NCBI GenBank assembly: GCA_951406725.2
Contig: OX597816.1
Location: 121,334,001-121,398,000, forward strand
DNA from: Octopus vulgaris
Taxonomy: Eukaryota
DNA length: 64,000 nt
Direction: 5' to 3'
Of the stretch, positions 54,055 through 55,000 are shown piece after piece. The notes beneath the pieces were generated by a model that worked only from the letters and a program-made list of their open reading frames with translations, was not told where the DNA came from and searched no databases. The first letter of the stretch is position 1, and every line of letters begins with the position of its first letter. Both the position numbers and the translations under genes were made by a program.

Positions 54055-54575
54055 ATTTCAAAATAAAAGGAAGAAACTAATATATTTTGACCTCAACATT
54101 AAAGTAAAGAAGAGACACCAAAATTGACAGTTAAACATAGCTTTTATTACCTGTGTGGGTGTGTGCAGTGTGTATGCGAATGTAATAACGTGGGGTGTGT
54201 ATGAAAGCGCCTTAGTATGTGAGTATATATATGTGTGTCCACAGTCGGATTTGGTTAAACAGTTTTCAAAAATAAATACAATCTCTCTCTCCCCTTTTCT
54301 CTCTCTCCATTTCTCTCTACCCCCTCTCCATTTTTCTTTTTGCTTCTTCCCTCCGTCTTGACCTCCAGACCCAGGACAAACTGTTTTTACCTTAATTTAT
54401 TATAAATTTTTACTGATATTTGATAAACTGATTTACATCAAAACTGGTTATATTTTCTTATATAATTTTTTATTAAATTCTGTGTTAAATTGAAATTTCT
54501 TAGACTTACTTCTGTGCTATTTCCACCTCCATCTTATATATAATCAAAATAAGCAACAAGGATATCCAGAGGTAA

Positions 54576-54662
54576 TGCAGTACGATCGTTTCATGCGACT
54601 CCATTTAATTGAACAATGCAAACATTACATCAATTTAAAATGTAGAGCAATCTTCAGCTGCA
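54576..54662 (-). ncRNA. Type I hammerhead ribozyme motif (Penelope-type, palindromic stem III)
   Basis: Minus strand reads TGCAG-CTGAAGA-long stem II-GAAA-CGATCG-TA-CTGCA: 5-bp stem I, ACGATCGT palindrome, GUA cleavage triplet. First stem II position is a U.U mismatch. Confidence 0.75.
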
Positions 54663-54775
54663 TAAAAATATAGAATTTAGTTAAATTCGAAGGACTCATA
54701 TGTATACATTTTTTATCCAAAATCACCAAGAGGATAAGTAGATAGACAAAGAACACGTTTTATCAACATCACAGT

Positions 54776-54862
54776 TGTAACTGAAGATTGCTCTACATTT
54801 TAAATTGATGTAATGTTTGCATTGTTCAATTAAATGGAGTCGCATGAAATGATCGTACTGCA
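54776..54862 (+). ncRNA. Second hammerhead motif in the opposite arm of the same inverted repeat
   Basis: TGTAA-CTGAAGA-...-GAAA-TGATCG-TA-CTGCA: core intact, stems I and III weakened by substitutions. Confidence 0.6.
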
Positions 54863-55000
54863 TTACCTCGGATATCCTTGATGCTTATTTGATTATAATC
54901 ACCTTATTTTAAATTATATGGATAATACCATACTAAATTCCGGTGCCTTCAGCTTAAGTACCATATTCATCTGAATCTAAATTTTACTGAACTTATCCAT

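Follow-up and report, generated by a model that had tools for sequence, protein, structure and literature searches.

A high-copy octopus repeat of probable Penelope-like parentage inserted head to head, with one complete and one truncated hammerhead motif

The foldback at 54543–54996 of the window (the whole stretch of 64,000 nt of Octopus vulgaris DNA that was analysed) is most likely an ordinary small head-to-head insertion of the Penelope-like element (PLE) type, with one complete and one truncated hammerhead. We are fairly confident that it stems from one retrotransposition event of a high-copy octopus PLE family or of a non-autonomous pLTR derivative. The original prediction had described a compact mobile unit carrying a ribozyme on each strand. 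This description could not be upheld: one of the two motifs is truncated, the spacer between the arms is part of the minus copy, and the junctions of other copies differ.

Anatomy of the insertion and its target site

The insertion (about 454 nt, 31% GC) begins on the left with the minus copy of 238 nt, followed by the plus arm of 117 nt and its tail of 99 nt; both 3' ends point outwards. The two near-identical inverted arms seen earlier are indeed present: 54539–54657 and 54781–54897 align with 96.6% identity over 119 columns (2 substitutions and 2 one-base gaps) and share an ungapped core of 94 nt. The limits first proposed (54538–54898) are too narrow, since family sequence runs on to about 54996.

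The minus copy (54543–54780, minus strand) represents the family 3' end or pLTR. Read along its own strand it consists of ≈ 123 nt upstream (the ‘spacer’ of the foldback), the hammerhead, and ≈ 40 nt downstream. Public contig pieces run without interruption across arm and spacer (54652–54780, 54638–54784 and 54649–54781). The plus copy (54781–54897, plus strand) is 5'-truncated at the first base of CTGAAGA, as indicated by the arm alignment and the stem energies, and is followed on the right side only by the family tail of ≈ 99 nt (54898–54996, plus strand), which is recognised by contig loose ends and has a depth of 0.1–0.8 million in run X1. The head-to-head junction (54780/54781, within 54772–54784) shows a 12-nt imperfect palindrome (54772–54783) and microhomology. 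The latter matches the stem I/core region at 7 of 9 letters, a score equalled by 0.4% of 9-mer pairs. Four of the 9 letters, however, belong to the arm itself; counting just those of the spacer, 3 of 5 match.

The insertion is bordered by a 15-nt direct repeat, TCCATCTTATATATA, at 54528–54542 and 54996–55010 (both plus strand). This is the longest exact border match; TA repeats blur the edge, and the right copy merges into a (TA)n tract. On its two strands taken together, the window contains the first 8 letters of the left copy 3 times. Beyond 54996 other copies in the public contigs read (AT)n and not CCATCTT. The 15-nt repeat is therefore target sequence. No unoccupied target site was seen.

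The insertion target is an older, lower-copy repeat at 54367–54542, which contig depth places outside the element. Its depth in X1 reaches at most 21,554, as against 56.6 for the locus's own contig (≈ 380 times), and pieces from run X11 over 54407–54542 differ from the window at 18–21 letters. Other copies of this repeat run past the TA run into different sequence, while here it stops at (TA)n. It is possibly the end of another retroelement.

The hammerhead motifs of the two copies

The minus copy carries a complete type I hammerhead motif at 54575–54663 (minus strand), supported by descriptor matching, energies, shuffles and junction letters like those of Hydra-clade PLE ribozymes. Stem I is ATGCAG/CTGCAT (6 bp, 54663–54658/54580–54575). 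It is followed by the core CTGAAGA (54657–54651), a stem-loop II of 58 nt (54650–54593), GAAA (54592–54589), the palindromic stem III ACGATCGT and the cleavage triplet GTA, which puts the predicted cut between 54581 and 54580. The intact 6-bp stem I, the palindrome and the unusually long stem-loop II on which the original prediction was based are thus all borne out, and the copy has the core CUGANGA, GAAA and NUH together with stems I–III of a PLE-type type I hammerhead. With stem I set to at least 6 bp, the descriptor finds this site as its sole match in the window. On dinucleotide shuffles of the window, one match was reached in 1 of 200. The stability of stem II is modest (−11.2 kcal/mol, z −1.4), being equalled in 93 of 1000 shuffles.

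A search with models of the Hammerhead_1 type had been proposed as a check. Rfam returned no hammerhead match in the whole window at the gathering threshold, nor in 54400–55000 at E ≤ 10; the long stem II probably defeats its hammerhead models. Six weak Rfam matches were dismissed as unrelated to the hammerhead. In three DNA or unlabelled runs the loose-end consensus reads GATAGC where the window has GATTGC. Judged from the 40 variant rows listed (of 115), this common variant costs stem II one base pair, barring a compensating change in the partner, and may weaken the base of stem II.

The plus copy had been taken for a second hammerhead. It retains the core boxes and stem II, and to that extent motifs do lie on both strands, but it lacks the 5' strand of stem I. 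Identity with the minus copy starts exactly at the C of CTGAAGA (54781); junction sequence stands in place of the missing strand and forms a duplex of −2.3 kcal/mol as against −6.7 kcal/mol. A C>T change turns its stem III into ATGATCGT. Neither the strict nor the relaxed hammerhead descriptor found this copy. TGCAG precedes CTGAAGA in other copies (loose ends at 54799), hence the plus copy is truncated at this point. Without a closing stem I it is not a full ribozyme.

Predicted folding

For the minus hammerhead as a monomer, the computed share of the active fold is 0.002. Dimerization through the palindrome is favoured by ≈ 2 kcal/mol in an additive estimate. The earlier proposal that arm pairing competes with ribozyme folding holds for read-through RNA, where the arm duplex wins by 110 kcal/mol and the computed hammerhead share falls to ≈ 1e-78. 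It does not extend to an RNA starting at the spacer, which contains only the sense arm; here the computed active-fold share is 0.0003. The whole-insert hairpin amounts to about −213 to −218 kcal/mol. At the window locus the hammerhead is most likely inert.

The repeat family in public contigs

Public contigs from four of 24 listed runs (organism labels A, B and D) were aligned to 54345–55002 at 80% likeness, which gave 901–9,946 aligned contigs per run. In X1 the summed depth over 54543–54608 is 1.36–1.76 million, compared with 56.6 for the flank contig. From this ratio of 24,000–31,000 we estimate roughly 10^4 copies, bearing in mind that a depth ratio is not a copy number and that overlapping contigs inflate summed depth. 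The depth profile shows a multicopy, dispersed and 5'-truncated family, with divergence possibly accounting for part of the gradient. The spacer belongs to the family and runs on from the minus copy without a break up to 54780–54784, at a depth 10–20 times below that of the arms. Upstream of stem I (54653–54696) the family depth in X1 drops ≈ 7-fold, from 480,820 to 68,994; either divergence or the ending of many copies no more than ≈ 20 nt from the ribozyme may lie behind this. Four listed pieces contain 216–378 unaligned letters past 54768–54784, which may be upstream element, or host DNA if 54780 is a natural pLTR 5' end.

The stretch 54898–54996 is likewise family sequence, its reverse complement being seen in loose ends before 54542. 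Across the four runs its depth comes to 0.45–0.73 of the arm peak. Loose ends in X3, X11 and X10 show that copies stop at 54996 and pass into (AT)n, and a second class of family ends at 54535–54542 is joined to (TA)n in the same way.

Eight of the 15 joints listed (of 101), at depths of 4–128, connect an antisense 3' piece with a sense piece but do so elsewhere than at 54780/81. Several joints end at 54798–54802, beside an indel private to the window copy, which makes their exact breakpoints uncertain. None of the 32 pieces listed (of 23,938) crosses 54780/81 by more than 4 nt. With such variable head-to-head junctions, the foldback looks as if it was built at each insertion and not moved as a unit. 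One further joint, from 54594 to 54949 on opposite strands, is compatible with a direct partial tandem. Both arms share minority letters of the family. These are found at 54622/54816, where 79% of the X1 depth differs, and at the mirrored positions 54597/54841, where 65% and 79% differ. This suggests that both arms derive from one template or from sister templates.

Listed pieces of X10, which we guess to be an RNA run, differ from the window at 7–14 letters, with A>G changes at 8 and T>C changes at 16 places. X1 is similar (8 and 18), and the contigs are therefore uninformative on transcription or editing of the window locus. Neither blastn nor nhmmer found a second family copy in the window. 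Pattern scans of metagenome contigs (carried out twice) and of prokaryote genomes gave 0 matches. One pattern match in a viral contig (L001) was rejected as due to chance, no CTGANGA box preceding it within 241 bases.

Parentage of the family

A search of the 214 window ORFs (filtered, at least 55 residues) with Pfam returned no RVT_1 or GIY-YIG match; truncated PLE insertions are not expected to retain an RT/GIY-YIG ORF. The ORFs instead matched Tc1/mariner pieces, a zf-RVT piece, YAP and a C2H2 finger, and one further match was weak and unrelated. The tail contains a short reading frame (54918–54971, ATG at 54918), which was considered as the start of a PLE ORF. With a query of only 30–40 residues, and hence at low sensitivity, no relative was found among 1.84 billion representative proteins, and comparison with longer proteins gave 6 candidates, none at E ≤ 1. 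The idea was set aside for want of a protein relative, a rejection that the short query leaves weak. Ten family motifs compared with the supplement of Craig et al. (2021) gave one unrelated 9-mer only, in a file whose line-broken sequences allow for misses. No description of this octopus family was found in the literature, and Repbase, Dfam or the O. vulgaris library may include it under a Penelope name. PLEs make up 6.83% of the O. vulgaris genome, with 190 families, according to a supplement table (PMC13282606).

With no parent ORF found, the assignment to PLEs is based on the architecture of the insertion and the style of its ribozyme. Both were compared with published accounts, which support the original prediction in pointing to hammerheads of Penelope pLTRs and to inverted pLTRs. 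Inverted pLTRs of ≈ 200 bp have been reported, with head-to-head as the commonest layout and, in Adineta, duplications of 8–10 bp and palindromes at the junctions (Arkhipova et al., 2013; PMC3846280). In the elements described by Craig et al. (2021; PMC8557442), the 5' end bears an inverted copy that is itself 5'-truncated, one end carries a tail of 30–40 bp, and there is a (TA)n bias. The octopus insertion resembles such endonuclease-bearing PLE head-to-head insertions in its inverted 5'-truncated partner, outward 3' ends, one-sided tail, duplication at a (TA)n target, palindrome and microhomology at the junction, and pLTR-sized piece (238 nt versus a published 193–218 bp). It departs from these accounts in being devoid of an ORF and in the length of its tail (≈ 99 nt versus 30–40) and duplication (15 nt versus 8–10).

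Concerning the ribozyme, PLEs have been described with dual minimal hammerheads on opposite strands, 100–700 bp apart, which have an extra base after CUGANGA and a palindromic stem III and cleave weakly in vitro as dimers (Cervera and de la Pena, 2014; PMC4209133). Among 25 Hydra-clade families compared from File S2 of Craig et al., 14 have, by our own count, stem II flanked on each side by an additional T, as in the octopus motif, and 8 of these 14 have TGC..GCA at the stem II base. The same file lists a motif on each strand of Penelope-13_HM, owing to an inverted 5' copy, and two PLE-X1 ribozymes with a stem-loop II of ≈ 50 nt. The octopus motif shares with PLE and Hydra-clade hammerheads the one extra base after CUGANGA, the short basal stem II and the extra U before GAAA; it also shares the palindromic, dimer-requiring stem III, the position near the 3' end and the arrangement in opposite-strand pairs. 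Its stem-loop II is 58 nt long, as compared with roughly 11–26 nt in the Hydra-clade rows. The family sequence differs from Hydra-1_Obim and escapes the Rfam models. The Hydra-clade likeness is confined to the ribozyme junction and the (TA)n bias, a bias also reported for Naiads and Neptune (PMC8557442). PLE parentage is most likely.

Viroid-like RNAs carry hammerheads in both polarities. The foldback is like them in having motif boxes on both strands and a rod-like fold. It is unlike them in that the boxes are duplicates of one sequence, one of them truncated, within a high-copy genomic repeat bounded by a target site duplication, and no circular unit is seen.

Proposed mechanism

The structure of the insertion, its duplication, the large number of copies, their ends on (TA)n and the variable junctions are observed, whereas the enzymes and the order of the steps that follow are our inference. 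An endonuclease would nick both strands ≈ 15 nt apart at the (TA)n tract. One nick would prime cDNA synthesis ≈ 40 nt behind the hammerhead, giving the 238-nt minus copy, and the other would prime ≈ 99 nt further down the RNA, giving the plus copy with its tail, with synthesis stopping at the hammerhead core. The truncated cDNA ends would then be joined head to head, probably by microhomology, leaving the 15-nt duplication. The hammerhead would be inherited cargo, a putatively dimer-dependent type I motif in the style of the Hydra clade with an enlarged stem-loop II, complete in the minus copy only. In vitro, an Anolis PLE has been shown to start reverse transcription internally and to cut both strands at AT-rich DNA (PMC11167929).

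Alternative readings

An unlikely alternative, partly overlapping with the PLE reading because animal retrozymes have been proposed to be non-autonomous PLE derivatives, is a non-LTR retrozyme amplified through circular RNA and tandem arrays with the help of PLE enzymes, the locus then being an inverted pair of partial monomers. Like these retrozymes (PMC7229834), the family is non-coding, AT-rich (31% GC) and present in thousands of copies, probably with PLE enzymes involved; no ORF was found, the type I hammerhead has a palindromic stem III, and the joint from 54594 to 54949 would fit a direct partial tandem. Retrozymes are, however, defined as tandem repeats with a type I hammerhead in each monomer (bioRxiv 10.64898/2026.07.22.740005; PMC7229834), whereas the locus is an inverted pair. 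No tandem arrangement is seen at the window locus, and behind the tail most loose ends pass into (AT)n instead of returning to the upstream part. The ≈ 7-fold fall in depth upstream of the hammerhead likewise fits truncated insertions better than whole monomers. Less plausible still is a fixed foldback, MITE-like or a self-silencing ribozyme cassette, that moves whole and perhaps acts on YAP through dsRNA. The high identity of the arms, the very stable hairpin and the computed suppression of the ribozyme fold in read-through RNA would be expected of such a unit, and the tail depth relative to the arm peak could mean that paired ends are common. Against this stand the asymmetry caused by a 99-nt tail on one side, the truncated plus ribozyme, and an interior that is not fixed as in a MITE but is single-orientation family sequence, 10–20 times rarer than the arms. 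Other junctions differ, no listed piece crosses the locus's own junction by more than 4 nt, and nothing was found that links the foldback to YAP.

The remaining alternative concerns activity and is compatible with the insertion having arisen as a head-to-head PLE product: the boxes could be PLE heritage, a decayed or half core whose 58-nt insert does not work as stem II, leaving the family motif unable to cleave. We consider this a serious possibility, though one that falls somewhat short of even chances. Cephalopod Naiads have similar long-spaced motifs labelled ‘HHR_half_core’ by Craig et al. (PMC8557442), and PLE hammerheads have been described as cleaving poorly in vitro (PMC4209133). The failure of Rfam, the modest z score of stem II, an active fold of only 0.2% as a monomer and the common GATAGC variant point the same way. 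On the other hand, the minus copy has kept stem I, both boxes and the palindrome of stem III intact, only 1 of 200 shuffles matched the descriptor and the dimer is favoured by the computed energies. The two PLE-X1 ribozymes, moreover, offer precedents for a stem-loop II of nearly this length.

Significance

The window locus itself matters little, being one of very many truncated PLE-type insertions, a layout described since 2013–2014. The family is of some modest use as an addition to the cephalopod hammerheads: it is very abundant, has an enlarged stem II and is missed by Rfam models. Counts such as the 235 Hammerhead_1 matches in giant squid (PMC6962438) may accordingly understate the hammerhead load. 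The many junctions of the family would permit testing how PLE inverted partners get primed.

The octopus lineage is known for heavy RNA editing. If head-to-head copies are frequent and transcribed, they would be a candidate dsRNA source for it. A more far-reaching idea, which we regard as speculative and rather improbable, is that an undescribed, largely non-autonomous octopus PLE derivative of ≈ 10^4 copies has an active hammerhead whose stem-loop II is 58 nt long and frequently lands head to head. Thousands of near-perfect 50–120-bp hairpins, spread over the genome, would result and serve as a main dsRNA/ADAR substrate, comparable to inverted Alus, each silencing its own ribozyme on read-through.

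Context in the window

The first coding exon of YAP1 (61637–62074), encoding the TEAD-binding loop and the start of the WW domain, shows 99% identity to Octopus sinensis YAP1. The distance of ≈ 6.7 kb stated earlier is accurate, with the start codon at 61637 lying 6,739 nt from 54898. It carries no weight, given ≈ 10^4 family copies and an unrelated hammerhead foldback 5 kb away.

This second head-to-head pair is located at about 49165–49877, with arms at 49222–49405 (minus strand) and 49674–49877 (plus strand) of 77% identity. Its plus copy contains a complete motif according to the relaxed descriptor (49786–49838, plus strand), with a stem II that recalls Hydra-1_Obim. The minus copy has lost 10 nt of stem III/stem I and extends towards a (TA)n tract. 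The same layout in an unrelated family within 5 kb is what is expected of a generic insertion product.

The window is repeat-dense. A frame of 168 residues with C2H2-type zinc-finger matches at 53548–54051 is probably the 3' end of a decayed LINE. Pieces of decayed Tc1/mariner transposase and a LINE zf-RVT piece are found at 15897–16385, 17761–17931, 19747–20022 and 26093–26398.
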